From IMG/VR virus record IMGVR_UViG_3300033121_002101, positions 32,001 through 96,000 of that record: a stretch of DNA of 64,000 nucleotides, one strand, 5' to 3'. How positions within the stretch are numbered: the stretch's first letter is position 1; each line of letters starts with the position of its first letter. A program made the position numbers and the translations under genes. Source of the stretch: a virus (taxonomy: Duplodnaviria; Caudoviricetes). Shown here in pieces: positions 10,597 to 63,765 of the stretch. Below the pieces are notes generated by a model that worked only from the letters and a program-made list of their open reading frames with translations, was not told the origin of the DNA and did no database searches.

Positions 10597-12414
10597 ATGG
10601 CTAGAAATATAGAAAAAACTAGATCTACGTCGCTTTTGAATAAAGATTTTGATTCTTTCAAAAAAGATGCGATAAGATTTATGGATGCGTATGCATCTGG
10701 AAGTATTGTAGATAAAAGCACACCATCAAGTGCAATGGTTTTAATAGAATTGATGGCTTTTATTGGAGATACACTAGCGTTTGGAATAGACCAATCATTT
10801 AATGAACTTAGAGAAGATACGTCTTCTCAAGTAGAGAACGTTGTTGAGTTTGCAAGAATGAGGGGTTATAAAGTAAAAGGAAAAACACCTGCTAGAGGAA
10901 AGCTTCCAATAATGATAGAAGTTCCTGCAGCTGTTGTTTCTGGGTCTGTTGTCCCAGATCCTCTTTATCTACCGACACTACCAAAGGGCGCGCAAGCACA
11001 ATCAAAAAATGGCGTTTTATTTGAAACACTTGAAGAAATAGACTATTCAAATTCAACTGGAAGAGATGTCACTGGATCACTTTTTAATTCAAGCGGAATT
11101 CCAACATATTTCGCTGTAAGAAAATCAGCTGAAATTATATCTGGACAAACAAAAACAGAGTCTTTTTCAATAACAGACTTTAAGCAATTTAGGACAATAG
11201 AACTGTCAGATCAGGATGTCACCGAGATCATCTCTGTTGTTGACAGCGACAACAATGAATGGGTTGAAGTGGAATACCTTGCCAACGATTGGGTGTTCAG
11301 CGCCGACTCTAATGAAACGTCTGATGCAGAAGATGTTCCATATGTTTTGAAAGTAGTAGCTGCACCCCGTAGATTCATTTCTAAATGGAATCCAGTTACA
11401 AAAAAGACGACTATTACATTTGGTTCTGGTGATGGTATTAGTTCTGATGATGAATTAATACCAAATGTCGCTGACTATTCAATACCTCTTTATGGTAAGA
11501 GAACTATTTCAAGCGTCCCAATTGATCCAAGAAACTTCTTAAAAACAAGAACACTTGGAATGAGTCCATTTAATACAACATTAACTGTTACATATAGATC
11601 TGGCGGTGGTAAAGATGGAAATGTCGAGCCGGGTTCTATAGATTCAATGGTGAAAGCTGATTTGTCTTTTGCAACAACAAATTTGGATTCTATAAAAAAA
11701 GGTGATATCGAATCATCTATACAATGTTTCAATACAGACAGAACAGATGGCGGCGCTGAAGAAGAAACTGTAAAAGAAATAAAAGCCAATTCAGCAGCAT
11801 TCTTTTCAGCTCAAGACAGATGTGTGACAAGAGATGATATGATTGCCCGTGTTCTTTCACTGCCAGCTAAATTTGGTAAGCCTGCAAAAGTTTTCGCAAA
11901 AACATCAAGACAAAATGATGGTTCTGTAGACATATATATGCTTGCAAAAAACTCTGAAGGTCATTTTATTTCTCCTTCTAACACACTGAGAAATAACGTT
12001 GCAACTTATATCAACAAGTACAGAATGCTGACTGATGGTTTTAACATTTTTAATGGAAATGTTATAAACATGAGGTGTAGATTTGGAATAGTTGTTTCTC
12101 CATCATTTAATAAAAGTGAAACAATTTCTAGATGTATAAGTGCTCTTAAAAAATATTTTGACAGTGATTTAGCACAGATTGGGCAACCAATAGTGCTGTC
12201 AAATGTTATATCAACAATTGATGATGTTGAAGGTGTCGTGTCAGTATACGAATTAAACATGACGAACGTTTTTGGTACAATTGATGGTTTACAATATTCA
12301 TCTACTAGGTTTGATTTTGAAAGTGCAACAAAAAACGGAATGATAATTTGTCCAGATAATTCTTTGATAGAATTACGTTATCCAAGAAGAGATATTGTTG
12401 GAGTTGCTAAATGA
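10597..12414 (+). CDS. Baseplate wedge gp6-like protein
   Basis: KDFDS, ARMRGYK, ITFGSGDG, GGAEEETVKEIK...AQDRCVTRDD. Confidence 0.85.
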   Translation: MARNIEKTRSTSLLNKDFDSFKKDAIRFMDAYASGSIVDKSTPSSAMVLIELMAFIGDTLAFGIDQSFNELREDTSSQVENVVEFARMRGYKVKGKTPARGKLPIMIEVPAAVVSGSVVPDPLYLPTLPKGAQAQSKNGVLFETLEEIDYSNSTGRDVTGSLFNSSGIPTYFAVRKSAEIISGQTKTESFSITDFKQFRTIELSDQDVTEIISVVDSDNNEWVEVEYLANDWVFSADSNETSDAEDVPYVLKVVAAPRRFISKWNPVTKKTTITFGSGDGISSDDELIPNVADYSIPLYGKRTISSVPIDPRNFLKTRTLGMSPFNTTLTVTYRSGGGKDGNVEPGSIDSMVKADLSFATTNLDSIKKGDIESSIQCFNTDRTDGGAEEETVKEIKANSAAFFSAQDRCVTRDDMIARVLSLPAKFGKPAKVFAKTSRQNDGSVDIYMLAKNSEGHFISPSNTLRNNVATYINKYRMLTDGFNIFNGNVINMRCRFGIVVSPSFNKSETISRCISALKKYFDSDLAQIGQPIVLSNVISTIDDVEGVVSVYELNMTNVFGTIDGLQYSSTRFDFESATKNGMIICPDNSLIELRYPRRDIVGVAK

Positions 12415-13775
12415 TATACAGAATTTATCCAGATAAAGATACATTTATATCGAATGCTGTTGTTGCAAGTGTGCAGCAAACAGGCTCAAATTATGGATAT
12501 GCTGAATCACTTGAAGTTTTTAAAATTGCTGGTGTGTCAGGTGCGCAAAGTGTGCTGTCTGGATCGCAGCTGTCAAGAATATTAATACATTTTCAGACAG
12601 CATCACTTGATAATTTCTTGTCTACAAATCCTGTTTCATCTGCTGCAAAGTCATATAGACTTTTTATGCAACATGAAACGACAGGTGATGGTTTACCACA
12701 AGCATTTACATTAAGAGTTAGAGCAGTATCTGGTTCATGGCTTGAAGGAAGAGGAATTGACACAGTAGACAGGTCTGATTATGGTGTTGCAAACTGGTGG
12801 AAATTTGATTCTTCAAATTTTTGGGTACAGAGGGGTGGAGATTGTTATGCAAGTCCAGACCTGTCTCAAACATTTGATATAGGTGATGAGAATTTAGATC
12901 TTGATGTAACAGATGCATTTAACTTATGGTCATCAGGTACAAGGAATGATGGCTTTTGTATATCACTTGCGTCTGCACATGAGAGTGACACTGTATATGA
13001 TGATTTTTACAAAAAAAGCTTTTACAGCAGACACACACAGTGGGATGAAAGAAAGCCATATGTTGAAGTTAGATGGAATGACTTCATAGGTGATGATAGA
13101 AGCAAAATGACTTGGGGAATGACAGGGTCATTGTTCTTGCATAACATAGTAGATGGACAATACACTGCATTATCAATAGGTCAATCAGCATTAATCGTTT
13201 CAATTTCAGATTTATCAGGAACAATAACAAGAGTCACAGCGTCTGCAACACAACTTGTTGGAATATACAGCGCAAGCATTTGCCTACCAAGTGCATCATA
13301 TTCAGGTTCAATTTTTTATGACTCATGGGGTTCTGGTTCATTTGCTTTTATGACAGGCTCTTTTACTTTTAAAAGTAAAACAGCGTATAAATCTTCTCAA
13401 ACGCAACAGTATACAGTAAACGTACCGAACATTAGAGAATTTTATGATGCTGAAGAAGTAGTTAGATTCAACGTCAACATAAGAAGCAGGTCATATAGAC
13501 AAGGTGTTGTTGCAACTGCATCACTTAGAGTTACACCAGATATTGTAGAAAAATGCTACTATTCTATAGAAAATGAGTCTACTAGAAGAAAAGTCATTCC
13601 TTTTGGCACAGGTTCACAACAGCATACAAGACTTTCGTATGATGAAAATGGAAACTATTTCATGTTTCCAATGACAAATTTACATTCAGGTGAAGTTTAT
13701 AGATTATATGTTTTAGTTGACAGGGATGGCCAGAGACAAATTATCGATTGCAATTCTAAATTTAGGGTAAAATGA
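12411..13775 (+). CDS. Baseplate-associated structural protein
   Basis: KDTFI/SRILIHF/W.EG.G/F.SR...P pattern (DNRLRE-like); position in baseplate cluster. Confidence 0.6.
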   Translation: MIYRIYPDKDTFISNAVVASVQQTGSNYGYAESLEVFKIAGVSGAQSVLSGSQLSRILIHFQTASLDNFLSTNPVSSAAKSYRLFMQHETTGDGLPQAFTLRVRAVSGSWLEGRGIDTVDRSDYGVANWWKFDSSNFWVQRGGDCYASPDLSQTFDIGDENLDLDVTDAFNLWSSGTRNDGFCISLASAHESDTVYDDFYKKSFYSRHTQWDERKPYVEVRWNDFIGDDRSKMTWGMTGSLFLHNIVDGQYTALSIGQSALIVSISDLSGTITRVTASATQLVGIYSASICLPSASYSGSIFYDSWGSGSFAFMTGSFTFKSKTAYKSSQTQQYTVNVPNIREFYDAEEVVRFNVNIRSRSYRQGVVATASLRVTPDIVEKCYYSIENESTRRKVIPFGTGSQQHTRLSYDENGNYFMFPMTNLHSGEVYRLYVLVDRDGQRQIIDCNSKFRVK

Positions 13776-16654
13776 GTAGAGATTTATTTAGACTATTTGG
13801 AAACGGCAATCAAGCCGCTGAGGGAAAATCAGCGACTGCACCACAAAATTTGTTTGATATGACAAATGATGATGGTGAGCAAGATGCTTTACTAAAAAAA
13901 GCAGAAAAATCACTTGAAACGTCATTAAGAGTTGATTATTCTGATTTTGCAAATCACGTGTTTCTTAATAGTGCATTAAGTTATTTTGACATTACTGGCG
14001 AAAAAATATTAAGTGAATACCCAAAAGACGGCTCAAGAGGTGAGTTGGAAGCATTCACAAATGACTTGGACGGCTACCAAAAGTACATATTAAACAATTG
14101 GCCTGTAAGATCAGGTCATATCGTGTTTAAACCGTCAGTATCTTCATCTTACGTTCAGATAGATGACGTTGGAAATTTTGACAATGTAACAAAAAATGGA
14201 ATGCTTAGCCCAGGTACTGGTTCATGGGCACTAGAAATGTGGTATAATTCTGCAAGAACGCTTACTGCATCTCAAGGAATATCTGTATTAGCACAAAAAG
14301 ATGACAGAGTAGGCGTTTCTTTAACACTTTATCTAAGCGGTAGTTCTGTTTACTTGAATTTAAAATCTGGTTCAAGTACTACAGAAGTTAGTGCGCCTGC
14401 GCACATCAACACAAGTGGTTATGTTTTAGGTGTTGTTGACAGGTCACTTGTTTCTGGTACATTGACAATATACACAGGTTCACAAAGTAAATTTCCAACT
14501 GTTGTTTCAAGTGCTTCAATAAGTTTTGGAGGAGCATTGACACTTGCAAGTGCTTCTTTATTCATTGGAAGTGGCACTTTAACATCAAAAAATCACGTTC
14601 CATATTCAGGAACAGTTGATGAAGTAAGAGTGTGGAACTGTGCACTTGCGTTAGCAGATGTAACTTCGTCTTTTAATAGAAAAATATATTCAAACAAAAA
14701 TCTTGTTGGAATGTGGCGTTTCAATGAGACAGGTTCTACTGGTTTATCTGGTGTAGACAGTATAGTGGCTGATACAAGCGGTCACATGGTGAACGGCAGA
14801 ATAAAAAACTATTGGAATGGAGCAAGAGGTTCTGGCTCTTTTGTGTATGAAACGCCAGATATAATTTGTGATGTAAGATGTGCAGAGGTTCTTTCGTTTA
14901 TAGTCGAACAAAGAACATCTGGCTCAGACTATGACAGAAATAATAGCGGAAAAATAACAGATATGTTTCCGCAAGAGCTGCTAAGAGGGCAAGAAGAACA
15001 AGAACATGACATTATAAAAAACTTTTTATATGTCATGGGCCGTTATTTCGATAAAATTAGATTGTATGCGCAGCATTTACAATACTCACTTAGAGCAAGT
15101 GAATGTACATCAAATGATGTACCAGATTCAAAACTTGAAGACTTAGCAAGATTTTTTGGTATAGAATTACCAGGAAGCTTTTCAGATACAAGTGCTTTAC
15201 AGTATCTAATTGGAAGAGATATAAAACCTGGTGAACTTGGCAACTATGAATTAGACGTAAAATTAGATGAAATTAAAAAGAAAATTTGGCGTAGACTGTT
15301 AAGCAATCTTTCTACGATTTATAAGAAAAAAGGAACAAGAGACAGCGTAAATGCTGTGATGAATGCACATGGAATTCCAAGCAACATTTTTCGTTTAAAA
15401 GAATACGGTTATTTGGAAAAATCTGCAATACGCGAAGAAAGAATTCCGTCACAAATAACGACAAGGAATGTTTTTATAAATTCAACTGACACTTTGCAGA
15501 TAAAAATGAGTCAATCGTATACTGACTTTACAATAGAAGGAAGACTAAAACTTCATCAATCAACAGGTGCGCAACAAGATATGATCATTTTTGAACATCC
15601 TGTAACTGGCCAGGCAAGCGGCTATATTAGCGCTTATCAACAAGGCGCAGGATCAACAACAGGTGCACTGTATTTTTTTGCACAAAGCGGCGAATTTGTT
15701 GGTGTGACCGGCCCCATTTTTAATGATGAATGGTTTAATTTCAGTGTTGTAAAAAAATCGCTGTCATCAGATTTATCAAATTTTAAAATAGAAGTTAATA
15801 GATTTAAAGAAAACAGAATATATTATTCTGCTTCATACGAAGAACAACTTGCTGATGTTCAGACATATCAAACGACAGATCCACAATTTTATTGTAGCAC
15901 TCAACAAAACTCATATAGCTTAGATGAATTTAGATTTTGGACTAGAGCACTTGAGCAAAATGAATTAGAAGATCACTGCTTAAACTTTAGAAGTTTTGGG
16001 TCGAATTATCCGTTAAATTTAAAAAATGATTTAATCGTACATTTAAGATGTGATGAAACATTCACTTCAGGTGCTTTCACTGTTTTATTAGACCACTCAA
16101 TGCATGGGCATAATGCAATTTGCTCAGGCACACAAGTATCAGGTACTGAATATCTTAATGAATATTCTTATATGGCATCACCAGATTTAGGGTGGACAGA
16201 TGAAAAAGTGAGAGTATTCTCAGATGAAATAAATGAAGAAGATAGACCAAGAGATATACCGGTTTTGTCTCTTGAAATGAATATGATAGATCAGCTAAAT
16301 GAAGACATATCACAAATGATGTCTTCAATTGATACAATTAATGATGCAATTGGTCATCCAACGTCACAATACAGATCAACATATGATTCTTTAGATAAAC
16401 TGAAAAAAGAATATTTTAGAAGAATGACAGATAAGTTAAATTTTAGAATATTCATTGATGCACTTGACTTTTTCGATAGATCATTTATCGATGTAATTAA
16501 AAAATTAATACCTGCAAAAGCAAGATTTTTTGGTGGAGAAACAGTGATTGAATCGCATACTTTTGAAAGATCAAAAACGCAATATGCACCGCCAGCAGAT
16601 GATAATGTTGTTGATTCAATCATAAGTTGCACGATAAATGTTTTTAGGAGATGA
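13772..16654 (+). CDS. Baseplate wedge (gp7/tail protein I-like) with two LamG-like domains
   Basis: IYKKKGTRDSV motif; DEVRVWN and DEFRFWT LamG motifs; IPAKA. Confidence 0.7.
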   Translation: MSRDLFRLFGNGNQAAEGKSATAPQNLFDMTNDDGEQDALLKKAEKSLETSLRVDYSDFANHVFLNSALSYFDITGEKILSEYPKDGSRGELEAFTNDLDGYQKYILNNWPVRSGHIVFKPSVSSSYVQIDDVGNFDNVTKNGMLSPGTGSWALEMWYNSARTLTASQGISVLAQKDDRVGVSLTLYLSGSSVYLNLKSGSSTTEVSAPAHINTSGYVLGVVDRSLVSGTLTIYTGSQSKFPTVVSSASISFGGALTLASASLFIGSGTLTSKNHVPYSGTVDEVRVWNCALALADVTSSFNRKIYSNKNLVGMWRFNETGSTGLSGVDSIVADTSGHMVNGRIKNYWNGARGSGSFVYETPDIICDVRCAEVLSFIVEQRTSGSDYDRNNSGKITDMFPQELLRGQEEQEHDIIKNFLYVMGRYFDKIRLYAQHLQYSLRASECTSNDVPDSKLEDLARFFGIELPGSFSDTSALQYLIGRDIKPGELGNYELDVKLDEIKKKIWRRLLSNLSTIYKKKGTRDSVNAVMNAHGIPSNIFRLKEYGYLEKSAIREERIPSQITTRNVFINSTDTLQIKMSQSYTDFTIEGRLKLHQSTGAQQDMIIFEHPVTGQASGYISAYQQGAGSTTGALYFFAQSGEFVGVTGPIFNDEWFNFSVVKKSLSSDLSNFKIEVNRFKENRIYYSASYEEQLADVQTYQTTDPQFYCSTQQNSYSLDEFRFWTRALEQNELEDHCLNFRSFGSNYPLNLKNDLIVHLRCDETFTSGAFTVLLDHSMHGHNAICSGTQVSGTEYLNEYSYMASPDLGWTDEKVRVFSDEINEEDRPRDIPVLSLEMNMIDQLNEDISQMMSSIDTINDAIGHPTSQYRSTYDSLDKLKKEYFRRMTDKLNFRIFIDALDFFDRSFIDVIKKLIPAKARFFGGETVIESHTFERSKTQYAPPADDNVVDSIISCTINVFRR

Positions 16655-16657: not shown

Positions 16658-18595
16658 TTGTCAAACGTAATTCGCTTTTTTTCAGATAGTAAAGATGTTG
16701 TTGTTAATCAACAAACAGACAGCGCCGTTTCTGTTTCTGTTACAGGGACTTATCAGAAGCAAGTTACACATGTGTACGATCAAGTTGTTTTAGGCAATTC
16801 TGGAAAATATCCAAGATCAGCACCTGTTTTTGCTAGTTCATCTGTTGAAGTTTATACGTCTGTAAAAACGAAAAACGCAAGACAAAGAAAATCATTTGTA
16901 AGTACTTTAATTTCAACTGGTTCTGAAAGTACGTCTTTGATGTCAATTGGTTTGGGAAACCAAGAGTTTGTACAGAGACCAATATCAGCATCTAGACATG
17001 AAGTTACTGTTTTGGGTGCATATTACAGCGGCACAAACGTTATTGAAGGAGCTGTGCCGTATACATCATCTTTATATTACGCAATCAGCAGAGATATACG
17101 CAAAGTAACATTTAAACTAACAGCGAGCGCAGACATGGGGGGATATGTTGCGCATAGAGGTTTGTCTATTCACAGTAGTGCAAGTATAACAGCTCCGCAT
17201 ATCATTACATGCAATTTAGAAAACATGGAAAATAGCCAGGCAAAGTTTACTGAAAATGGTAAAATAATAGATATAAAAATATGGGTTGAGATTTTACAAG
17301 TGTCTGGTGCTTTAATACATCCACCGCTTGGACAGTTTGCGCTAGCAGTAAGAAGTCCAAATTTATCTTGGGGTCATGCACATCCATTAAGAAATTACAA
17401 TAAAGATGGTACAGTGTGGGGACCATATGAAGACCCGCCTGAATTTTATAAAAACTCTTTTTTGCTTTGGGAGCCCGCTTCTATATTCAGAGGCGTAAAA
17501 GTTCCGTACAGTGGATCACCAACATCTGACACAGATGGATTAGATCCTGCTTTTAGGTCACCATGTTGGGATCGTGATATGGGAATGAGAACAATTTTTT
17601 GTGATGGTGCGCAAGTAAGAAATCCAAGAGACATACACCAAGTCTATAAGAGAGAATTTTCAAGTGTTTTACAAGGAAATAGAGCATATTCAGCACCAAA
17701 TTATGGTTTGCTTCAGCTACCAGAAAACCCAACTGCAAGCATGTTTGGTAATGGGTGGCCGTGGTTTGATAGTGGCCACCTAAGTTCATCAAATGGTAGC
17801 GATTCTGGTTCGCCACCAAATGGGTGGCTTACAGGCGCTGGTGGTGTTGCAAGCGGTATTGAGTGGCCAACAACTGGGTCTAACATAGGACCAATTTATA
17901 TGCGTCCAGTGTATCCGCTGCTTGATGATATTTTCGTTAAAAAACTGTATCACACAGATGGATTTGCATCTGATGAAGGAAATGGAAATGTAAGACAATA
18001 TTGGCAGAGTTGGGTTGTTAAAAGGCCAGGACTAAGAGGAACAGACATGCTTGGCGTTTGGCATCTAATGATTGCAAATGGTTTTTTGAGCACAAAGACA
18101 TATACACCAACTTATTTTAGACAAGTTCGCTTTGAAATAACATATGAAGTTACGCCAGGTACAAAAAGGCAGCACGTCTATTCAGCAAATAGAGTTAAAA
18201 GATCTGGTGTTGTACCTTACAAAAAGGGTTTGAATTTAATAAGTGTCATATCTGGTTCAAAAGACTTTACATTTATTAAAAGTAATTTGACAGATGCGCC
18301 AGCAGATTATTATTCAACTGGCATATACATCGAAGCAGGAAGTGAACTTGAAATAAATAGAGCAATAGGAATTACAGACAGTGCTGATGATTTCTATAAA
18401 GAAAACTTGGCTGTTTATACAAGTGGTACATCTGTATTTACAACAACTGCAAGTTATGATCGTTCTCTCGTAGCATCTGTGTTGTCTCCGTCTGTAAGCA
18501 GTATGGGCCCAAGAACGCTGAAACAGATTGTAAACAACACTGATTTCATGACAACATCACAGATTGCTCAGTTGGTATTAAGCGGAACAATCTAA
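16658..18595 (+). CDS. Structural protein with interrupted P-domain-like beta-sandwich
   Basis: IIDIKIWVEI...LAVRSP ... LRGTDMLGVWHLMI; TTG start. Confidence 0.5.
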   Translation: MSNVIRFFSDSKDVVVNQQTDSAVSVSVTGTYQKQVTHVYDQVVLGNSGKYPRSAPVFASSSVEVYTSVKTKNARQRKSFVSTLISTGSESTSLMSIGLGNQEFVQRPISASRHEVTVLGAYYSGTNVIEGAVPYTSSLYYAISRDIRKVTFKLTASADMGGYVAHRGLSIHSSASITAPHIITCNLENMENSQAKFTENGKIIDIKIWVEILQVSGALIHPPLGQFALAVRSPNLSWGHAHPLRNYNKDGTVWGPYEDPPEFYKNSFLLWEPASIFRGVKVPYSGSPTSDTDGLDPAFRSPCWDRDMGMRTIFCDGAQVRNPRDIHQVYKREFSSVLQGNRAYSAPNYGLLQLPENPTASMFGNGWPWFDSGHLSSSNGSDSGSPPNGWLTGAGGVASGIEWPTTGSNIGPIYMRPVYPLLDDIFVKKLYHTDGFASDEGNGNVRQYWQSWVVKRPGLRGTDMLGVWHLMIANGFLSTKTYTPTYFRQVRFEITYEVTPGTKRQHVYSANRVKRSGVVPYKKGLNLISVISGSKDFTFIKSNLTDAPADYYSTGIYIEAGSELEINRAIGITDSADDFYKENLAVYTSGTSVFTTTASYDRSLVASVLSPSVSSMGPRTLKQIVNNTDFMTTSQIAQLVLSGTI

Positions 18596-18618
18596 ATGTA
18601 TAGCAAGATATATAATCT

Positions 18619-19212
18619 GTGGGCTTCTTAGATCCAACAGAGCAGATAGTAGATTTAGTTCTAACACCAGAAGGCAAAAGACAACTTGCTTCTGGTGATT
18701 TGTCTTTTGAGTATTTTTCACTTCACGACGATGAAATAGATTACAGACCACTTTTTTATCTTTCATCATCATTTACAGACGCAGACATAGAATCTATTAC
18801 TCCTCTAATGATAGAAGACACTCCGATATTAGAAGCAATCGTTGGCCGCTCTCACGGTGGCTCAAATGATTCTGTAAAACCAACATCTTTTCTTTTTGAT
18901 TCATCTGGAAAAGATGAACAGATTCCATCTATGGAAATTTCTCCGAATGTTACTGGAAGTTTACTCACTACAAACCAGCAGATCGGAACCAATAGAAATT
19001 TAATAAAAGTTGACAGAAGTTCAAATGATTTTTTACTAGTGTCTGTAAAAATGATAAATGATTCTGGAATAAAAAATCAATATGTTATTTCTTTGTTTGA
19101 GTCTGGATCAGATGGGTTCAATGAAATATTCCCAATGTATGATTCAGCTGGAAGAAGGTCATATGGAAATGATTTTATTCTAGAAATTGATTCAGAGATA
19201 GGTTCAATATGA
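18619..19212 (+). CDS. Baseplate/tail-collar-like protein (paralog of 25871)
   Basis: LVLTPEGKRQLA...FSLHDDEIDY...PILEA. Confidence 0.6.
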   Translation: MGFLDPTEQIVDLVLTPEGKRQLASGDLSFEYFSLHDDEIDYRPLFYLSSSFTDADIESITPLMIEDTPILEAIVGRSHGGSNDSVKPTSFLFDSSGKDEQIPSMEISPNVTGSLLTTNQQIGTNRNLIKVDRSSNDFLLVSVKMINDSGIKNQYVISLFESGSDGFNEIFPMYDSAGRRSYGNDFILEIDSEIGSI

Positions 19213-21608: not shown

Positions 21609-21609
21609 A

Positions 21610-23181
21610 TTGTCTGATAAAAGTGATTTACAATCAATATGCGACTGCATGTTGTCACCACCATCTCTCGATCCTGGCAATCCCAGAGTGATTGCTTATT
21701 TTTCAAGAATAGATACAGCTGCGTCAATTTTTGGAATTGAACTTGCTAGTTCTTCATTTGGATTCTCAGCTAATATTATAAAAAGAAATCAATGCTTAGA
21801 AAAAATAAGAGAATGCATTGACATGTATGAAAACATATCAGCTGCTGGCTTGTTTATGAATGAAAACCCATTCACAAGAATAGATGCAATAAACTCTTCA
21901 AGAAGAGTTGTAGATGATATTGGCAATAGCAATGAAATTTTTTCATCTACAATGAAAAATATCCGTACTCTTCTTGACTTAATCACCAGAAGAGATGCTG
22001 GTTCTTTTGACATATCAGGCGCAAGGCCACAAGTAAGTGCGCTTGATATATCATTTGGCGGAATGACAGGAATACCATCATCTATTTTTAATGCAGATGA
22101 TTTAAAGCGCCAACAATCTCTTAACGCTCTAAGAGAACTTGACTTTTCAAAAAGAAAACCAAAAGTTTTATTTGTCTCTGAAAGAGAAGGAGAGACATAT
22201 GACATAGTGGTCGGCTGGCTAAAGATGAGAGATGCATCATCTTACATGTTAACTCTTTCAGATAGAGTTTTTCAGCATACGATTCACGTTACAATACAAT
22301 CACAGAATTTAGAAAACGTTGATGAAACAACTAAATCATTTTACAAGTCTGTGATAGCTCCAGTTATTGGTAATTCAATAAAAGAAAAAGATATTGCATT
22401 ATACAGATTTTCAAATGTGTTAAGAGATAGTGTGTACTCATTTTCAATTTTGCCAATGCAGAATATAAACTCTGGAAGAAATAATCTGTTTAGAATGACT
22501 CTTAATAGAGTTGTCATGACAGATAGACAAATGAGCAATATTTTATCTGCAATACAACTCGCTGGTTTTTCAAATACAGATGAAATCACTCCATATCCGT
22601 TTATATCAAAAGAACTGTATGGAACAGATAAATACGGATGGCTTTTAGCAGGCGTCAATTTGTTATCTGCATTTGACAAAAATGAGCAAGCTGCAAAAGT
22701 AAGATCATATTCGTACATTGGTGCTAAATGGTCACAAATATCGCAGCTTATTTTGTCTGGTGAATTTTATGCTCCATCAAATGTATCTTCGTTTGAACAG
22801 GCTTTGAATAATTCATTTTCAACATATGGCTTATCATCTACAATGATAGAAATTTTAGATAAGTGCGGAATGTTGCTATTTTTTGATGATAGAGAAGGAT
22901 TTGATACAACAATAGTATCAACTGGCAATTCAAATGCTATAAAAGAAACAGGTCTTGCAAGAGCAATAATTTCAGCAATAGATCCAGTTAGTGCAACTGT
23001 CACACCTAGTGCAATATACGCAGCCACTGAAATTAATTCAGGCAATTGGCGTACTTTATTTGCATCACAAGTACTAACACCAAGACTTGATAATTCAAGT
23101 GATGAAATAGATATTATTTCATATGAAGGTGTTACAAGGTTTTTAAACGTTATGATTGATGCATCAAGAAGGGCTTCATAA
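21610..23181 (+). CDS. Hypothetical (probable structural) protein
   Basis: Long ORF within the structural block; TTG start. Confidence 0.6.
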   Translation: MSDKSDLQSICDCMLSPPSLDPGNPRVIAYFSRIDTAASIFGIELASSSFGFSANIIKRNQCLEKIRECIDMYENISAAGLFMNENPFTRIDAINSSRRVVDDIGNSNEIFSSTMKNIRTLLDLITRRDAGSFDISGARPQVSALDISFGGMTGIPSSIFNADDLKRQQSLNALRELDFSKRKPKVLFVSEREGETYDIVVGWLKMRDASSYMLTLSDRVFQHTIHVTIQSQNLENVDETTKSFYKSVIAPVIGNSIKEKDIALYRFSNVLRDSVYSFSILPMQNINSGRNNLFRMTLNRVVMTDRQMSNILSAIQLAGFSNTDEITPYPFISKELYGTDKYGWLLAGVNLLSAFDKNEQAAKVRSYSYIGAKWSQISQLILSGEFYAPSNVSSFEQALNNSFSTYGLSSTMIEILDKCGMLLFFDDREGFDTTIVSTGNSNAIKETGLARAIISAIDPVSATVTPSAIYAATEINSGNWRTLFASQVLTPRLDNSSDEIDIISYEGVTRFLNVMIDASRRAS

Positions 23182-25852: not shown

Positions 25853-25870
25853 ATCTAACTGGAGATATTC

Positions 25871-27587: not shown

Positions 27588-27609
27588 GGTCATCTTGTGA
27601 GGAACACGG

Positions 27610-34049: not shown

Positions 34050-34059
34050 AAGGTAATTT

Positions 34060-35651: not shown

Positions 35652-35660
35652 GACATATGT

Positions 35661-35695
35661 ACATTCCTATGATACTAAATATATGATAGGAGTGT
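35661..35695 (+). promoter_or_regulatory. Late-promoter-like motif CTAAATA in a hairpin loop; 3' arm contains the SD
   Basis: acattcctat-g-ata-ctaaata-tat-g-ataggagtgt. Confidence 0.65.
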
Positions 35696-35699
35696 CAGA

Positions 35700-36137: not shown

Positions 36138-36140
36138 AAA

Positions 36141-37883: not shown

Positions 37884-37886
37884 TAA

Positions 37887-50596: not shown

Positions 50597-50911
50597 ATGT
50601 TTACACCATCAATATTCGCGCCGATAGTTTCTGGAAGCTGGAAAATAAGTAGAGTACAAGCCAGTGCAACACCTGTTTTACTGCTTTCTGGGTCTTCATT
50701 TGGAAGAAGAGAAGCTGCAATTTATAACCACGGAAGCGGTTCACTTTACATTGCACCGGGCCCAAACGTTAGCGTAAATTATTTTGCAGCTAAAATAGGA
50801 TCTGGTTCATATTACGAAATGCCAATTCCAACATACCAAGGAGAGGTGTATGGAATATGGGATGCAGCAAATGGCTGGGCAATGATAAGCGATAAACAAT
50901 CAGGAGAATGA
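50597..50911 (+). CDS. Small beta-sandwich virion decoration-like protein (paralog of 58866)
   Basis: RR...IYN.G..SLYI...PIPTYQGEVY; four SGS. Confidence 0.6.
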   Translation: MFTPSIFAPIVSGSWKISRVQASATPVLLLSGSSFGRREAAIYNHGSGSLYIAPGPNVSVNYFAAKIGSGSYYEMPIPTYQGEVYGIWDAANGWAMISDKQSGE

Positions 50912-54302: not shown

Positions 54303-56669
54303 ATGTCAAATACGTTTAGTTCACCCTCTGTTTCTGCCAACGAAATAGATCAGTCATTTAGCGCAACAGAAGGACCATCAAATGGTGCTGCACTTGTTGG
54401 TACTACACCAAAAGGTCCAGCTTTTAAACCTGTTGTTGTTAGAAAATTTGATGAATTTAGGCAAGTGTTTGGAGAACTTGATCCAGCACATCCGCTTACA
54501 TTCGCTGCATTTAACTATTTAAAGAACGGAAGTTCTCTAAGAGTTATTAGAGTTCTTGGTAACGATGACGGAACGTCAACTCAAACTGGATACAACGTCG
54601 ACGGAATTGTCGGCATTTCAGATGTAAGTGGAGCAATTGGTGCAACTGGATCAATTCTTGCTGAAATACACTATTCTGGAACAAAACCAACAGTCGTTGG
54701 TGTAGCTTCTGACGCAAACAGGTTTGTTATTTCATTTGGAAGCGTATTCTCAGCAACAGCTTCATTCCAAACAAGTTCAGCTGACTATATTGGAAAAGTT
54801 CTTAATACCGATCCAACGAAATATTCAACGTATTACCACTATGTCTCTTCAGTTTACAAGTATCAGCCGCAAGCAGCTTCTGCTTCATGGTGGTCTGTAA
54901 GTACGCTATCAGCATCATGGAAAACATTTGATCGTGACCACGAGCAAGGACAAACACCATGGTTCAAGTCACAATTGCTTGGTGGACAGGAATTTGATTT
55001 ATTCAAACTGTTTACGCGTGCAGATGGCCGTTCAACAAATGACGACGTAAAAGTTACAATCGCAAATGTTAGACCGTCTGCAAATCCAACAATTTATCCG
55101 TACGGCACATTTGATTTAGCAGTTAGAGATTTCAATGATTCAGATACAAGGCCAGTTGTTCTTGAGTCATTCACTGGATTGAACTTCGATCCAGATGATA
55201 GAAACTACATTCTAAGAAAAATTGGAGATGTTAACGAAACATTCTCAGATACAGAGAGAAAGTTCCAAGTAACTGATGGATCTTGGCCGGGTTCACCTGG
55301 TTCAAGATACATTAGAGTTAAACTTTCAGATTCTAACTTCCCAGCAGAAGCTCTTCCGTGGGGACACAGAGGATTTCCGAAGTTACTCTATTCTGGCTCT
55401 GCTGGTACAACAGGTGCAGGTGGACAGAACAAAGTTCCAGATCTGATTTACAATGCATTCCAACGTGATTCGCAAGGTAATCCAAATGATTTAGTTTGTT
55501 TCGGAGTACTCTTCGTTTCTGGCGGTGTTGCAGACAGAATGAGAGCATTCCCAGATATCCCAACAAGTGATGCTGCAATGACAGGATCAGATGCTGGCTT
55601 CTCACTCAAGGGACTTACATCATTCAGTGACAATGGAACTACACGCTGGTATTGGTCATCTGCTGGTACAGCATATCAGCCACTTTATGCATCTGGTTCT
55701 GTACAGAAGTTCACAGTTCCATTCTACGGTGGATTTGATGGGTGGGATTTAAGAGTTCAAAACCCAATCGGCCAGTGGACATTAACAAATGATGCGCTTG
55801 AAGCTTCAAGCATTGGTGTTGTATCTCTTAAGAGAGCAATCGATGTAATTCGCAATCCAGACTTACTTGACATGAACGTTCTTGCAATACCGGGTGTTCA
55901 CAACAAGAGAGTTACAGATTATGCACGTTCGATGGCGAATGAACGCAAAGATGTTCTCTACATCGTCGATGTTACAGGTTCAACTGTTTCTGAAGTTGAG
56001 TCTGCATTGACAGCTCGTGAGATTGATGACAACTACGCAGCATGCTATTATCCAGACGTAAAGCAAGAGCACCCAAATGTTCCAGGAAGACTAGTAAGAG
56101 TTCCAGCTTCAGTCGCTGCTATTGCTGCTATTGGTTACACAGATAGAGTTGCGCAACCATTCTTTGCACCAGCTGGTATGAATCGTGGTGGTTTAACAGA
56201 CAACTTTGGAATTAAAGATGTTGTTGACAGACTTGATTTCAAGGATCGCGATAGACTTTATGATGCAAGAATTAACCCAATTGGTACGTTTACAAAAGAA
56301 GGCGTTGTAATCTACGGACAAAAGACGCTGCAAGCAAGACCAAGTGCTCTTGATAGAGTAAATGTAAGAAGACTGCTTATTCTTGCAAAGAAGAGCGTTC
56401 TGCAAGAAGCAAAAGAATTACTGTTTGAACCGAACAATGCAGGAACATGGACACGCTTTGTCAACAAGGTAAATCCAATACTTGACCGTATTAGACGTGA
56501 CCAGGGAATCGAGCGCTTCCGTGTAGTGATGGATTCTACGACAAATACACCAGACATAATCGATCGTAATGCAATGTACGGAAAAATCATACTCCAACCA
56601 ACAAAAGCAGTTGAGTTTGTATCAATTGACTTTGTAATAACAAATGCTGGAGTTGCTTTCGGTAGCTGA
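54303..56669 (+). CDS. gp18: Tail sheath protein
   Basis: SPSV...EIDQS, GPAFKP, FAPAGMNRG, LYDARINPI, LDRVNVRRLL. Confidence 0.95.
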   Translation: MSNTFSSPSVSANEIDQSFSATEGPSNGAALVGTTPKGPAFKPVVVRKFDEFRQVFGELDPAHPLTFAAFNYLKNGSSLRVIRVLGNDDGTSTQTGYNVDGIVGISDVSGAIGATGSILAEIHYSGTKPTVVGVASDANRFVISFGSVFSATASFQTSSADYIGKVLNTDPTKYSTYYHYVSSVYKYQPQAASASWWSVSTLSASWKTFDRDHEQGQTPWFKSQLLGGQEFDLFKLFTRADGRSTNDDVKVTIANVRPSANPTIYPYGTFDLAVRDFNDSDTRPVVLESFTGLNFDPDDRNYILRKIGDVNETFSDTERKFQVTDGSWPGSPGSRYIRVKLSDSNFPAEALPWGHRGFPKLLYSGSAGTTGAGGQNKVPDLIYNAFQRDSQGNPNDLVCFGVLFVSGGVADRMRAFPDIPTSDAAMTGSDAGFSLKGLTSFSDNGTTRWYWSSAGTAYQPLYASGSVQKFTVPFYGGFDGWDLRVQNPIGQWTLTNDALEASSIGVVSLKRAIDVIRNPDLLDMNVLAIPGVHNKRVTDYARSMANERKDVLYIVDVTGSTVSEVESALTAREIDDNYAACYYPDVKQEHPNVPGRLVRVPASVAAIAAIGYTDRVAQPFFAPAGMNRGGLTDNFGIKDVVDRLDFKDRDRLYDARINPIGTFTKEGVVIYGQKTLQARPSALDRVNVRRLLILAKKSVLQEAKELLFEPNNAGTWTRFVNKVNPILDRIRRDQGIERFRVVMDSTTNTPDIIDRNAMYGKIILQPTKAVEFVSIDFVITNAGVAFGS

Positions 56670-59556: not shown

Positions 59557-62500
59557 ATGCCACTGCACCCACCTGGGCCGCCTACAATAAATGTTTCTGG
59601 ATCAGATGCTGCTATAGTACCTGTATCCATTCAACCGCAAACAGTACCTGCGTCTTACGTAACAGTTAGACTTACGAATGGAGATTCATATTATACAGCT
59701 GGTGGAACATCTGTAAGCGGAGGAAGTGTATTAACTGCAGATCAAGGTTCTCCAAATACTATTGGAAATGCATGGCCAGTAAAAATAACAGATGGCACAA
59801 ACATTTATGGCTCTAGAACAGTACCGATACATAGCTTAATTGCGTCTGGCGGTATAGGTGTTGGCGTCAGTAGTGTTTCAAGTATAGGCGCATTACGTGT
59901 TGATGTTGTACAGACAACTGGAATGCCATCTGGTTCACTTACGGGATTACTTGTTGGCGGATTAAATGTAGCAAATTCAAATCCAGTTCCAGTCTCAGAT
60001 GCTGGTGGAAGCATTACAGTTGATGGCACGGTGACCGCTGCACAAGGTACAGCAGCAGCCATTGGGTCACCATGGCCAGTGATAATAGTGTCAGGCAGTG
60101 ACGCAGTAGGGACACAGACACATCCTACGTGGATTACTGGGTCTGTATCAATTACAAATCAAGCAGGTGCTGGTTCAAACGTAACTGTTTTATCTGGTTC
60201 ACTAACAGGTTTGCTCGTCGGAGGTGTAACACTTTCAAATGCAAACCCTGTACCGATTTCAGATGCGGGTGGAAGTTTAACGGTTGACGGAACTGTAGTT
60301 GTAACATCAACTGTAATAAATTCAGGATCAGTTGCTGGTGTTTTAATTGGCGGGCAACCAGCATCAAATGCAAATCCAATTCCAATTTCAGACGCAGGCG
60401 GAAGTATAACTGTTGACGGAACAGTAACAACAGCGCAAGGAACACCAGCAAGCATAGCTTTACCGTGGCCTGTAATCATTGTTTCTGGTAGTGATCCAGT
60501 AGGAACGCAAACACATCCAACGTGGATTACAGGCTCAGTTTCTCTTACAAACCAAGCAGGAGTCTCTGCTAATGTCACAACACAATCTGGTTCAGTTGCT
60601 GGATTACTGATTGGTGGACTCAGCGTTGCTAATTCAAATCCAATTCCTATTTCTGACGCTGGTGGAAGTATAACTGTAGACGGTACTGTAACTGTAACTT
60701 CAACTGCTATAAACTCTGGTTCAATTACTGGACTTTTAATTGGTGGTGTTGCACTTTCAAATGCAAACCCAGCTCCAATTTCAGATGCAGGTGGGTCGAT
60801 CACAGTTGACGGAACTGTAACTGTTACACAAGGTACAGCAGCTGGAATAGGCGCGCCATGGCCAGTTGTTTTGGTTTCTGGCAGTAACGTTGTCGGCTCA
60901 ACGACTAATCCGATATGGGTTACTGGTTCTGTATATACATTAAATCCGGGAGCTGCAGGTTCAAATGTAACTTCTCTTTCAGGTTCAATAACAGGATTGC
61001 TTGTTGGTGGACTCAACGTAGCGAATTCAAACCCGATACCAATCTCTGATGCAGGTGGATCTATTACTGTTGACGGATCGGTCACTGTCACATCTACTGT
61101 GATTAATTCTGGCTCTGTTGCAGGTGTCCTTATTGGTGGACAACCTGCAACAAATGCCAACCCAGTGCCAATATCTGATGCTGGTGGATCACTTACAGTT
61201 GATGGCACTGTTACAACGACGCAAGGTACACCAGCAAGCATTGGTTCACCATGGCCAGTAATACTTGTATCTGGCAGCAACGTTGTTGGTTCAACAACAA
61301 ATCCAATTTGGGTAACAGGATCTGTTTACACGCTTAATCCAGGTGGCGCAGGCTCAAATGTAACTGCTTTATCTGGGTCTATCACTGGATTACTTGTTGG
61401 TGGCTTGAATGTAGCAAACTCAAATCCAGTACCAATCTCAGACGCAGGTGGAAGCATTACAGTTGATGGAAGTGTTACTACAACTCAAGGAACAGCAGCA
61501 AGTATAAATGCTCCATGGCCAGTCATTATCGTTTCTGGTAGCGATCCTGTAGGGACACAGACTCACCCAACTTGGATTACAGGTTCAGTTTCTTTAACAA
61601 ACCAAGCAGGCGTATCTGCGAATGTTACAACACAATCTGGTTCAGTAATAGGATTACTTGTTGGTGGGCTCAACGTAGCGAACGCTAACCCAGTGCCAAT
61701 ATCAGACGCAGGCGGATCAATAACTGTAGACGGAACAGTCACAGCAACTGTTGTTTCAACTGTTATAAACTCTGGTTCATTAACAGGGTTATTACTTGGT
61801 GGAGTAGCTGCATCAAATGCAAATCCAATTCCTATTTCTGATGCTGGCGGATCACTTACAGTAGACGGTACTGTAACAGCTGCTCAAGGTACAGCTGCAA
61901 GTATAGGCGCACCATGGCCAGTTATTATTGTTTCAGGAAGTGACCCTGTAGGAACGCAAACACATCCAACATGGATTACAGGTTCTGTGGCTATTACAAA
62001 TCAAGCAGGTGTTTCTGCTAACGTGACAGTACAGTCAGGATCAACGACTGGGCTACTTGTTGGTGGACTCAACGTTGCAAATAGCAATCCAGTTCCAATA
62101 TCAGACGCAGGTGGAAGTTTAACAATTGATGGAACAGTTGCTGCAACACAAGGAACTCCAGCAGCAATTAGTTCACCGTGGCCAGTAATACTTGTTTCTG
62201 GCAGTGATGTAATTGGGTCTACAACTAATCCAATTTGGGTAACAGGGTCTGTTTATACGTTGAATACTGGAGCAGCAGGATCAAATGTAACAGCGCTTTC
62301 AGGTTCAGTTACAGGACTTTTATTGGGTGGGCTTAGTGTAGCGAATAATAACCCAATTCCTATTTCAGATTCAGGTGGATCAATAACTGTAGACGGAACA
62401 GTTACGGTCACTTCTACAATAATCAATTCTGGTTCAGTTTCTGGAATTCTTATTGGTGGACAACCAGCAACGAATGCAAATCCAGTTCCAATATCAGACG

Positions 62501-63765
62501 CTGGTGGAAGCATTACTGTTGATGGAACAGTTACAGTTACATCAACAGCAATAAATTCTGGCTCACTTACTGGCTTACTTGTTGGTGGTGTTGCACTTTC
62601 AAACGCAAATCCCGTTCCTATCTCTGATGCAGGTGGATCGATTACAGTTGATGGAACTGTAACAGCGACTGTTGCTTCAACTGTTATAAACTCTGGTTCG
62701 TTAACGGGATTGTTGCTTGGTGGAGTAGCTGTATCAAATGCAAACCCAATTCCTATCTCTGATGCGGGCGGAAGTTTAACTGTTGATGGAACTGTAACTG
62801 TTGCATCTACGGTGATCAATTCAGGATCTGTTGCTGGCGTCCTTATTGGTGGTCAACCAGCTTCAAACGCAAACCCCGTACCAATATCTGACGCAGGTGG
62901 AAGCATAACCGTTGATGGCACTGTAACTGCTACAGTTGCTTCGACAATAATAACATCTGGTTCAGTTACTGGATTATTAGTCGGCGGTGTTGCAACATCA
63001 AACGCAAATCCAATCCCAATTTCTGACGCAGGTGGAAGCATCACTGTAGACGGAACAGTTGTCGTTAGCTCTGCTACAATAAGTTCTGGTTCAATTACAG
63101 GATTACTTGTTGGAGGTCTTAACGTAGCAAACAGCAATCCAGTGCCAATTTCTGATGCTGGTGGAAGCATTACAATAGATGGAACTGTAACAGCAACTGT
63201 TGCATCTACTGTAATATCTACAGGTTCAATCACAGGTCTGCTTGTTGGCGGACTTAACGTAGCCAACTCAAATCCAATACCAATTTCTGATGCTGGTGGG
63301 TCACTTACAGTTGATGGTACTGTTACTATTGCATCTGGTTCTGTCACTGGGCTTCTAGTTGGCGGTGTTGCAGTAAGCGGTACAAACCCAGTGCCCGCTA
63401 TAGCATATGACGGAATGGGAGCACAATGGCAATCTGGGTCTATGAGAGAAATCTCATATGCATTTTTAAACTCAGCTACATCTGGTTCTACTCAAATAGT
63501 AGCTGCTCAGGGCGCAGGAATAAAAATAACTGTTTTATCAGTTCACGTAATGACAACATCTGCTGTTAGTGTACAATTTACTTCATCAGGAAGCTCAGGT
63601 AATACTAATAAAACAGGTTTTTATCCTATAGCTGCAAACGGGGGATTTGTTTTACCACACAATCCACACGGCTGGTTCAGAACTAATGCTAACGAACATT
63701 TATGTTTAGGATTAAGCGCAGCTGTATTCACAGCTGCAACGATAACATGGATGCCAAGCATATAA
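59557..63765 (+). CDS. Large repetitive fibre/decoration protein
   Basis: 19 NP.P[IV]SD.GGS.T.DG.V units plus 7 PWPV modules; C-terminal IVAA.GAG...AANGGFVLP.NP.GWF domain. Confidence 0.75.
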   Translation: MPLHPPGPPTINVSGSDAAIVPVSIQPQTVPASYVTVRLTNGDSYYTAGGTSVSGGSVLTADQGSPNTIGNAWPVKITDGTNIYGSRTVPIHSLIASGGIGVGVSSVSSIGALRVDVVQTTGMPSGSLTGLLVGGLNVANSNPVPVSDAGGSITVDGTVTAAQGTAAAIGSPWPVIIVSGSDAVGTQTHPTWITGSVSITNQAGAGSNVTVLSGSLTGLLVGGVTLSNANPVPISDAGGSLTVDGTVVVTSTVINSGSVAGVLIGGQPASNANPIPISDAGGSITVDGTVTTAQGTPASIALPWPVIIVSGSDPVGTQTHPTWITGSVSLTNQAGVSANVTTQSGSVAGLLIGGLSVANSNPIPISDAGGSITVDGTVTVTSTAINSGSITGLLIGGVALSNANPAPISDAGGSITVDGTVTVTQGTAAGIGAPWPVVLVSGSNVVGSTTNPIWVTGSVYTLNPGAAGSNVTSLSGSITGLLVGGLNVANSNPIPISDAGGSITVDGSVTVTSTVINSGSVAGVLIGGQPATNANPVPISDAGGSLTVDGTVTTTQGTPASIGSPWPVILVSGSNVVGSTTNPIWVTGSVYTLNPGGAGSNVTALSGSITGLLVGGLNVANSNPVPISDAGGSITVDGSVTTTQGTAASINAPWPVIIVSGSDPVGTQTHPTWITGSVSLTNQAGVSANVTTQSGSVIGLLVGGLNVANANPVPISDAGGSITVDGTVTATVVSTVINSGSLTGLLLGGVAASNANPIPISDAGGSLTVDGTVTAAQGTAASIGAPWPVIIVSGSDPVGTQTHPTWITGSVAITNQAGVSANVTVQSGSTTGLLVGGLNVANSNPVPISDAGGSLTIDGTVAATQGTPAAISSPWPVILVSGSDVIGSTTNPIWVTGSVYTLNTGAAGSNVTALSGSVTGLLLGGLSVANNNPIPISDSGGSITVDGTVTVTSTIINSGSVSGILIGGQPATNANPVPISDAGGSITVDGTVTVTSTAINSGSLTGLLVGGVALSNANPVPISDAGGSITVDGTVTATVASTVINSGSLTGLLLGGVAVSNANPIPISDAGGSLTVDGTVTVASTVINSGSVAGVLIGGQPASNANPVPISDAGGSITVDGTVTATVASTIITSGSVTGLLVGGVATSNANPIPISDAGGSITVDGTVVVSSATISSGSITGLLVGGLNVANSNPVPISDAGGSITIDGTVTATVASTVISTGSITGLLVGGLNVANSNPIPISDAGGSLTVDGTVTIASGSVTGLLVGGVAVSGTNPVPAIAYDGMGAQWQSGSMREISYAFLNSATSGSTQIVAAQGAGIKITVLSVHVMTTSAVSVQFTSSGSSGNTNKTGFYPIAANGGFVLPHNPHGWFRTNANEHLCLGLSAAVFTAATITWMPSI
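59929..63396 (+). repeat. Two-module protein repeat array
   Basis: Directly visible in the translation; heavily synonymous-diverged at DNA level. Confidence 0.95.

Follow-up and report, generated by a model that had tools for sequence, protein, structure and literature searches.

A Ser/Thr-Gly-Ser tripeptide enriched in outer virion proteins of an aquatic T4-like phage clade: a candidate acceptor tag for protein O-glycosylation

Genes encoded in the window

The 64,000-nucleotide stretch of DNA analysed here (the window) covers bases 32001-96000 of a 196,531-base IMG/VR record, IMGVR_UViG_3300033121_002101, which represents the genome of an uncultured T4-like phage at an estimated completeness of 96%. 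We call this genome G000 (37% GC) and name its proteins by the coordinate at which their genes start in the window. All large open reading frames (ORFs) of the window lie on the + strand, and they were annotated by PHROG, Pfam, NCBIfam/TIGR and PDB sequence searches. They include a block of baseplate genes, genes for the capsid, sheath, neck and a repeat fibre, and part of a sugar island that lies directly upstream of the baseplate genes. The subject of this report is the tripeptide Ser-Gly-Ser (SGS), with its variant Thr-Gly-Ser (TGS; together [ST]GS), which is strongly enriched in the outer virion proteins, together with a pair of glycosyltransferases (GTs) that may read it as an acceptor tag. 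The outer proteins and the controls with which they were compared are as follows.

Window start 10179, + strand: gp25-like baseplate protein (PHROG/Pfam searches)
10597..12414, + strand: gp6-like baseplate wedge protein (PHROG 219/6); 3 [ST]GS, 0.73 expected
12411..13775, + strand: baseplate protein of a large phage family; 8 [ST]GS, 0.82 expected
13772..16654, + strand: LamG-domain baseplate/fibre protein (Pfam Laminin_G_3); 7 [ST]GS, all within residues 149-383
16658..19212, + strand: two baseplate-block proteins, one of 645 aa with 5 sites and one of 197 aa with 2 sites
19209..23181, + strand: two Ser-rich baseplate-block proteins (799 and 523 aa; 19209 and 21610); 0 [ST]GS, 1.08 and 0.63 expected
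23181..25817, + strand: 878-aa baseplate-block protein; 5 [ST]GS, 1.2 expected
26592..29361, + strand: two outer baseplate proteins, one of 331 aa with 5 sites and one of 583 aa (27610) with 9 sites
29361..39755, + strand: motif-poor controls (RuvC-like protein, primase, SbcCD/Mre11-Rad50 fusion, terminase, portal; PHROGs); one [ST]GS in total
44793..46481, + strand: major capsid protein (MCP), gp23 family (PHROG 138); SGS at residues 166, 184, 205 and 265 of 562
50597..50911, + strand: 104-aa virion-module protein with 4 SGS (3 in the G002 homologue); matches only virus-only hypothetical clusters
51017..52150, + strand: neck or head-completion-like protein (PHROG 211, weak); 3 [ST]GS, 0.57 expected
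Window start 52682, + strand: trypsin-like protease (PHROG/Pfam searches)
54303..56669, + strand: tail sheath (PHROG 23); 5 [ST]GS
59557..63765, + strand: 1402-aa repeat fibre, tandem repeats with a period of 129/264 nt; 30 SGS and 8 TGS

Two metagenomic relatives are syntenic with the window and share an MCP about 60% identical to that of G000, namely G001 (185 kb, 66% GC) and G002 (107 kb, 61% GC). By MCP comparison, the closest cultured relatives are Microcystis phage Mel-JY01, Flavobacterium phage immuto and Rhodothermus phage RM378, at 31-42% identity, with T4 at 26%. A megablast search of 20 kb against cultured phages returned no match. The three syntenic genomes belong to one phage clade and have kept gene order across a GC content of 37% versus 66% and 61%, which implies hosts of very different GC.

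Enrichment of SGS and TGS in outer virion proteins

Unless a Markov model is named, expected counts are derived from each protein's own composition. On this basis, the window holds 69 SGS tripeptides against 16.3 expected. When the repeat fibre is excluded, SGS (39 versus 12.5) and TGS (28 versus 7.0) rank first and second among all 8000 tripeptides, with Poisson probabilities of about 1e-9 each; GSG, SSG, GSS, NGS, AGS and SGA occur at expectation. For the test of location we left out the fibre and compared 15 outer proteins with the 46 others. The outer group contains 61 [ST]GS against 12.4 expected (p 6e-23), and against 31.5 under a first-order Markov model (p 2e-6), so that 61 of the 67 non-fibre sites fall in proteins with an expected share of 64% (p 3.5e-7). 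The proposal of a first-pass annotation that SGS is enriched in exterior proteins thus survives correction for Ser and Gly content. Its companion claim, that interior proteins and enzymes are nearly free of the tripeptide, holds as a count, with 6 [ST]GS in the 46 other proteins; with 7.0 expected, these proteins are at expectation and show no depletion. Outside the window, the genome carries [ST]GS at background.

The per-protein SGS counts of that annotation proved exact on recount. The fibre (59557) holds 30, 27610 holds 5 and the 104-aa protein 50597 holds 4, as do the MCP (44793), 12411 and 13772; 16658 and 23181 have 3 each, and the sheath (54303), 10597 and 26592 have 2 each. Single copies had been assigned only to the primase (29902), 43725, 47846 and the protease (52682); all four are correct, and 18619 and 51017 also carry one each. 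SGS is absent from the terminase (36141), portal (37887), tail tube (56679), SbcCD/Mre11-Rad50 fusion (30837), RuvC-like protein (29361) and all sugar enzymes. The recount also gave zero for 19209 and 21610, as had been reported. These two proteins are 13% Ser and are surrounded by the motif-rich baseplate block, yet contain no [ST]GS at all, and the counts of their G001 and G002 orthologues match expectation. Outer location alone is therefore no predictor of the motif.

The signal is at the protein level rather than the DNA level. The DNA pattern that encodes the motif occurs 61 times in frame and not once in either of the other frames, and the signal is held at both 37% and 61% GC. The SGS sites are written with 32 different codon combinations.

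Anatomy of the motif

The motif is wider than SGS and is better written as [ST]-[G>A>S]-[S>T] with hydrophobic flanks, because orthologues often show SAS, SSS, TAS, SGT or TGT at the site columns. The baseplate protein 12411 gives the clearest view of these preferences, as it belongs to a family of 1063 clusters. In its best 150 members, which are diverse in sequence, TGS (422 versus 55) and SGS (403 versus 70) are the top two tripeptides, at 7.6 and 5.7 times expectation; SAS/TAS reach 3.5 times and SGT/TGT about 2 times, with NGS at 0.49 times and AGS at 0.69 times. The low values for NGS and AGS indicate that a hydroxyl is needed at position 1, unlike the case of an ordinary Asn/Asp-Gly turn. 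Hydrophobic residues are enriched on both sides of the sites and charge is scarce upstream, and the contexts are strand-turn-strand, not Gly/Ser linkers.

The motif recurs in unrelated folds. It is present in 27610, which matches Pfam Laminin_G_3 at 3.4e-13 and whose AlphaFold2 (AF2) model matches the pentraxin and PAPP-A LamG domains in a Foldseek search; in the sheath, where four of the five sites (115, 364, 427 and 464) lie outside the conserved Pfam domains (29-84 and 523-780); in the MCP; and in the repeat fibre. In the MCP, none of the four SGS lies within residues 305-555, which give the best Pfam Gp23 score; a second Gp23 match was not located. Solvent exposure of the sites is plausible from modelling, for which the sole usable model, that of 27610, offers a weak check: at a predicted local distance difference test score (pLDDT) of 64, it places the sites at strand or hairpin ends (residues 178 and 217) or in low-confidence loops. 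An AF2 model of the MCP built from 7 sequences had a mean pLDDT of 36, too low for placing its sites.

The fibre is a special case. Its repeat units of 34, 43 or 54 aa, which are nested, carry one site each, and each site opens a conserved hydrophobic, Gly-rich stretch; the units begin with [ST]GS and then Val, Ile or Leu, and often read N-S-G-S. As these sites are tandem repeat copies, they share ancestry by duplication and represent few events. A homologue in G002 (95597-97153, 518 aa) has 17 sites at a spacing of mostly 20-22 aa. The G000 fibre matched no Pfam family (AIDA included), and only one weak PHROG of no assigned function (E 5e-4).

Density is kept while positions move

Judged from the sequences, the motif is typical of the whole clade, including immuto, Mel-JY01 and hundreds of metagenomic relatives, and its positions turn over strongly. 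Across G000, G001 and G002, the [ST]GS counts are 8, 6 and 5 in 12411; 7, 14 and 18 in 13772; 9, 10 and 11 in 27610; and 5, 4 and 3 in the sheath, with 0-1 in portal, terminase and SbcCD. Only 14 of the 105 site columns are common to the three genomes. Fifteen homologues of 27610, at 30-55% identity, each carry 4-14 [ST]GS (1-1.9 expected) and 17-23 loose motifs (5-9 expected), with some sites at columns where other members have unrelated residues. In the 12411 family, the sites of 89 full-length members are spread over 92 columns, and even the most widely used column is occupied in no more than 49% of members. Forty sheath orthologues from IMG/VR hold 180 sites against 41.8 expected, and the seven sites of the immuto sheath share none of the listed columns with the five of G000. 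That density is kept while positions move argues for a selected motif rather than an inherited structure. The earlier suggestion of a sequon rather than shared ancestry accordingly gains from the unrelated folds, the turnover and the co-variation with GTs described below, and fails for the fibre, whose 30 SGS share repeat ancestry.

The immuto ORFs that are rich in the motif bear the annotations tail fibre, tail spike, structural protein and sheath; the homologue of 51017 in that phage is labelled a head completion protein. Recruitment of the capsid to the motif looks recent, since the four SGS of the MCP occur only in the G000 lineage and in the 81%-identical L002, and relatives at 60% identity have SAS, SSS, SGA or SGT instead.

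Genome-wide, SGS and TGS rank 1st and 4th among tripeptides in G000, 1st and 2nd in G002, 1st and 4th in immuto, 4th and 8th in RM378, 4th and 27th in Mel-JY01, and 12th and 6th in G001. More distant phages show observed versus expected counts as follows.

T4: SGS 15 vs 16.1; TGS 5 vs 13.1
SPO1: SGS 10 vs 12.9; TGS 12 vs 11.2
KVP40: SGS 34 vs 20.0; TGS 14 vs 19.3
P-RSM6 (cyanophage, NC_020855): SGS 55 vs 27.2; TGS 29 vs 27.9

All four lack a TGS excess and motif-dense proteins. The sheath and MCP of T4 and KVP40 have 0-2 sites, and the T4 sheath has none. A closer relative, LR756508 (484 kb), is also nearly motif-free: its sheath and its 12411 orthologue have no sites, its baseplate set has 5 against 2.0 expected, and unrelated residues occupy the columns at which G000 carries sites.

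A sugar island with a pair of glycosyltransferase genes

The sugar island spans 20 kb and lies partly within the window. It begins with a PD-(D/E)XK nuclease, followed by a GT that we call GT-A, a short-chain dehydrogenase/reductase (SDR), a multi-GT protein (GT-B, GT9 and GT2 domains), a further GT4 and a DUF2334 protein. It continues with two Glyco_trans_1_2 proteins, two methyltransferases, a 302-aa GT9 protein, a heptose-epimerase-like SDR and a WbuC cupin, and ends with a nucleoside diphosphate (NDP)-sugar dehydrogenase, a HAD phosphatase, a nucleotidyltransferase and a heptose-kinase-like PfkB protein. At least seven GT domains are encoded at genome positions 21847-34805 (GT4, two GT9, GT2 and two GT1_2). 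The features used below are these.

L011:6895-7827: PD-(D/E)XK nuclease, adjoining GT-A
Genome 21847-23211, just upstream of the window: GT-A, a 454-aa GT4
Genome 24190-27357 (L011:10190-13357), upstream of the window: 1055-aa GT4+GT9+GT2 protein (multi-GT), the N-terminal domain of which is GT-B
3..557, + strand: C-terminal part of the 302-aa GT9 (heptosyltransferase family; Pfam Glyco_transf_9 2.2e-12; NCBIfam heptosyltransferase I/II at scores under the cut-off); its start lies 351 nt upstream of the window (L011:17649-18557)
533..1519, + strand: SDR nearest ADP-glyceromanno-heptose 6-epimerase (Pfam Epimerase 5.8e-26; TIGR02197 1.8e-33, below cut-off)
1921..2805, + strand: glycosyltransferase Glyco_trans_1_2 (Pfam 1.2e-9)
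4408..5328, + strand: NDP-sugar (UDP-glucose-type) dehydrogenase (Pfam UDPG_MGDP_dh 8e-24; TIGR03026 2.5e-48)
5325..7211, + strand: HAD/NT5C-like phosphatase (NT5C 4e-11), cytidylyltransferase-like nucleotidyltransferase (CTP_transf_like 2.8e-13) and PfkB kinase (PfkB 6.3e-14)

The PfkB protein resembles heptose-7-phosphate kinase (TIGR02198 rfaE domain I, 2e-34, below cut-off). Together, the genes at 533-1519 and 5325-7211 would make up a near-complete ADP-heptose route, all members of which score below equivalog cut-offs; no sedoheptulose-7-phosphate isomerase (GmhA) was found. Neither GT-A nor the multi-GT has a transmembrane-grade hydrophobic stretch, and Pfam searches of the island matched no flippase or polymerase family, which fits cytoplasmic targets. 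In atlas look-ups GT-A falls in virus-only GT4 clusters, and in PDB sequence searches the island GTs are no closer to any entry than to generic GT4 enzymes and WaaF.

Six genomes have GT-A and GT-B side by side: G000, G001, G002, immuto, Mel-JY01 and the IMG/VR genome G007. SGS and TGS are among the top four tripeptides in G000, G002 and immuto, and the enrichment is weaker in G001 and, for TGS, in Mel-JY01; in G007, for which the sheath alone was counted, there are 5 sites against 0.91 expected. The immuto island encodes a WecE-type aminotransferase and has no GT9 match. A constant GT pair in an otherwise varied island agrees with the idea that the enzyme of initiation is conserved and the glycan varies. 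The gene order PD-(D/E)XK nuclease, GT-A, GT-B is itself kept in G000 and immuto (MW353176, 47964-51883), though other island genes differ.

Among phages with little or no enrichment, neither GT-A nor GT-B was found in T4, KVP40, SPO1 or P-RSM6. LR756508 retains GT-A, and GT-B could not be found in it even by a six-frame search. In the MCP tree, LR756508 is sister to immuto and Mel-JY01 (98/96 support), within a clade that also holds the G000 group. This nested position argues for one independent joint loss of GT-B and the motif. RM378, in which enrichment is intermediate, encodes one GT of this family.

Structure prediction supports the binding of GT-A to GT-B as a heterodimer. The modelled complex scored 0.75, versus 0.00 for the best of three controls; among solved complexes 58 of 80 attain this mark, and among mismatched pairs 2 of 110, a calibration that is rough only, as alignments of three rows were used. 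Separate runs agree in at least 92% of contacts, the pLDDT of the partner is at least 88, and the C-terminal tail of GT-A (residues 448-454) packs against residues 255-263 of GT-B. The E-x7-E motif of GT4 enzymes is invariant in both subunits, and so both may be catalytic.

A possible O-glycan coat and its alternatives

The enrichment itself is confirmed, and its interpretation as glycosylation is plausible. The motif statistics, outer location, positional turnover, island genes and GT co-variation are observations; we infer the existence of a modification, its reader enzyme and the role of a coat, for example in shielding or adhesion. In the model that we favour, the tag is loosely [ST]-[G/A/S]-[S/T], mostly between hydrophobic residues at β-hairpin ends or in loops. 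The GT-A/GT-B heterodimer would act in the cytoplasm and add the first sugar to a Ser or Thr within the tag. The glycan could then be extended by the remaining island enzymes, which vary between lineages (in G000, two GT9 domains, the further GT4 and GT1_2 proteins and two methyltransferases); given the NDP-sugar dehydrogenase and the ADP-heptose route, it would probably contain heptose and uronic acid. We give an even chance to the proposal that soluble enzymes encoded by the phage attach O-glycans to its outer virion proteins, with [ST]-G-S as their acceptor tag. In its favour, SGS and TGS are specific, in frame, located in outer proteins, turning over in position and co-varying with the GT pair, and the same folds are free of the motif elsewhere. 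The predicted GT-A/GT-B heterodimer, the lack of membrane stretches in its subunits and the precedents for phage-encoded virion glycosylation and Ser heptosylation also speak for it. Slightly short of that stands the wider, joint claim that an aquatic T4-like clade, with hosts among Bacteroidota, Cyanobacteria and others, coats its virion exterior with O-glycans, namely the baseplate, fibres and sheath and, for the G000 lineage, the capsid; a soluble GT4 of two subunits, from a virus-only family, would read [ST]-G-S, and lineage-specific islands would diversify the glycan.

Several observations weigh against glycosylation of the tag. The co-variation comes from few, related genomes, and amounts effectively to one independent loss, that in LR756508, plus outgroups. 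The link is not all-or-none: GT-A persists in LR756508, and enrichment is intermediate in RM378, which has one GT. P-RSM6 has an SGS excess, diffuse over many proteins, in a genome that lacks the GT pair. A search for GT-A in ten IMG/VR contigs with motif-rich sheaths gave a single match, in a contig that is 70% complete; the others, 19-56% complete, are uninformative and decide nothing. The GT pair matches Pfam GT4-conflict and adjoins the PD-(D/E)XK nuclease, making DNA or some other target possible. The two Ser-rich baseplate-block proteins 19209 and 21610 lack the motif, and the location of sites at hairpin ends could also reflect a structural preference alone. Lastly, we found no published chemical evidence of a glycan on any phage of this clade, Mel-JY01 included.

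The main rival is such a structural preference, in which surface hairpins and loops favour an unmodified turn of small hydroxyl, Gly and hydroxyl residues for solubility, hydration or packing, and the GT island serves some other end; it is unlikely in our judgement but deserves serious weight. Hydrophobic, strand-like residues flank the sites, the 27610 model puts them at strand ends or in loops, 14 of the 105 site columns are conserved in G000, G001 and G002, and the single site per fibre repeat unit is what a solenoid turn would give. Yet LR756508, T4 and KVP40 build these folds without the motif; the Gly is often swapped for Ala or Ser, so that no special backbone angle is needed; the turn-former Asn is depleted at position 1; and density is held in unrelated folds while positions turn over. 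Composition or chance, by way of Ser/Gly linkers, codon bias or a DNA-level motif, could be suspected because outer proteins are richer in Ser and Gly than enzymes are, but the controls refute it and we leave it almost no probability: the excess is five-fold after correction for composition and two-fold over the first-order Markov model, permutations such as GSG, SSG and GSS are unenriched, the flanks are hydrophobic and not of low complexity, and the in-frame-only pattern, the 32 codon combinations and the same signal at 37% and 61% GC all speak against it. Protease cleavage sites can reasonably be set aside, as 5-18 sites would shred the proteins and baseplate proteins are not known prohead-protease substrates.

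We consider two further explanations improbable. One is direct O-heptosylation of the TibC/AAH kind, with a phage GT9 reading the tag, the ADP-heptose route feeding it and the GT4 pair as an accessory, a reading that has its appeal for the fibre. The two GT9 domains and the kinase, nucleotidyltransferase, phosphatase and epimerase of the heptose route would suit it, as would an invariant four-Cys cluster that follows the GT9 domain of the multi-GT and the resemblance of the fibre's N-S-G-S plus hydrophobic residues to the heptosylated N-S-G-G-A of TibA (PMC4358343). Against this, no GT9 match was obtained in immuto, where both the motif and the GT4 pair are present, which rules out a GT9 as the conserved reader; the 302-aa GT9 matches WaaF and not TibC and seems too short for the TibC β-barrel and thumb; and the Cys spacing is unlike that of the TibC iron finger. 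The other, to which we attach just as little probability, is that the motif is selected through a different Ser modification or through direct binding by Ser/Thr, for example to host polysaccharide, while the island modifies the host envelope or DNA. Such a role would agree with the LamG/pentraxin-like domains, of carbohydrate-binding type, and the fibres among the motif-rich proteins, with the LPS (lipopolysaccharide) core as the normal target of GT9 enzymes, and with the GT4-conflict match of the GT pair. It leaves unexplained why the sheath, MCP and neck protein, none of them receptor-binding, are also marked, and no other candidate modifying enzyme co-varies with the motif.

Implications and comparison with known systems

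We found no paper on a tripeptide (Ser-Gly-Ser) sequon on phage virions, and if O-glycosylation of the tag is borne out, this would be the first short-sequon protein O-glycosylation system in bacteriophages. Were the tag a real sequon, glycan coats would be a common and genetically readable trait of abundant aquatic phages, not an oddity of mycobacteriophages; sites could be predicted from sequence, and coat chemistry could be inferred from the variable sugar island. Such a coat might shield the virion from proteases or defences, lend it colloidal stability, or mediate adhesion to host glycans or mucus, roles that would be testable in the cultured phages immuto and Mel-JY01. For glyco-engineering, too, a soluble transferase of two subunits that recognises a tag of three residues on folded proteins would be useful.

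Two-subunit enzymes of this sort have a precedent in GtfA-GtfB of the serine-rich repeat adhesins, adjacent GT-B-fold paralogues that form a soluble O-GlcNAc transferase complex acting on Ser in Ser-small-Ser contexts, with GtfB being non-catalytic. GT-A and GT-B are likewise adjacent and are predicted, by modelling, to form a heterodimer. They differ in that both phage subunits keep E-x7-E and that the putative substrates are folded virion proteins rather than long Ser-rich repeats; no Pfam match to DUF1975, the substrate-binding insertion of GtfA-GtfB, was obtained for the phage pair.

In mycobacteriophages, according to PMC12619734, phage-encoded GTs are thought to glycosylate virion structural proteins, and glycans are found at the C-termini of capsid and tail-tube proteins. 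The phages studied here resemble them in encoding GTs of their own, and would share a cytoplasmic decoration of virion proteins and an outward-facing coat. The candidate sites here are internal and defined by a tripeptide, and extend over baseplate, fibre, sheath, MCP and neck. The C-terminal placement is not seen here, as the MCP, of 562 residues, has its sites between 166 and 265, and none occur in the tube (56679). The phages also differ, being T4-like myoviruses of aquatic bacteria with a virus-only GT4 family. A virus-supplied set of GTs and sugar-nucleotide enzymes is likewise found in chloroviruses, which use their own to glycosylate the major capsid protein in the cytoplasm at non-canonical sites (PMC9614988, PMC5408694). 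Those glycans are N-linked and belong to a eukaryotic giant virus, and the match of GT-A to the chlorovirus protein B736L is weak (PDB 3oy2, 2.9e-6).

A parallel for the heptose genes is the autotransporter heptosyltransferase TibC/AAH, which acts on TibA/AIDA-I, a soluble cytoplasmic enzyme of the GT-B fold that uses ADP-heptose as donor and modifies many Ser residues in short Ser-Gly/Ala-Gly/Ala contexts of a repetitive, β-rich surface protein; TibA, for instance, is O-heptosylated at Ser in N-S-G-G-A and T-S-A-A-V (PMC4358343). The phage has GT9 domains, an apparent ADP-heptose route and a repeat fibre with frequent N-S-G-S in common with this system. The candidate substrates here are many unrelated proteins, and the conserved partner of the motif is the GT4 pair, not a GT9. 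In the PDB, the 302-aa GT9 finds no TibC chain at E <= 0.01 and has WaaF (1psw, 7.7e-7) as its sole sequence match; even a bare LPS heptosyltransferase is longer than this protein. No TibC match was obtained for the multi-GT either. The four-Cys cluster of the multi-GT, C-x3-C-x4-C-x7-C at residues 695-712, lies right after the GT9 domain and is kept in G001 and G002. Its spacing differs from that of the TibC iron finger, formed by Cys 339, 342, 358 and 370 (PMC4358343), but the cluster may nonetheless be a metal finger.

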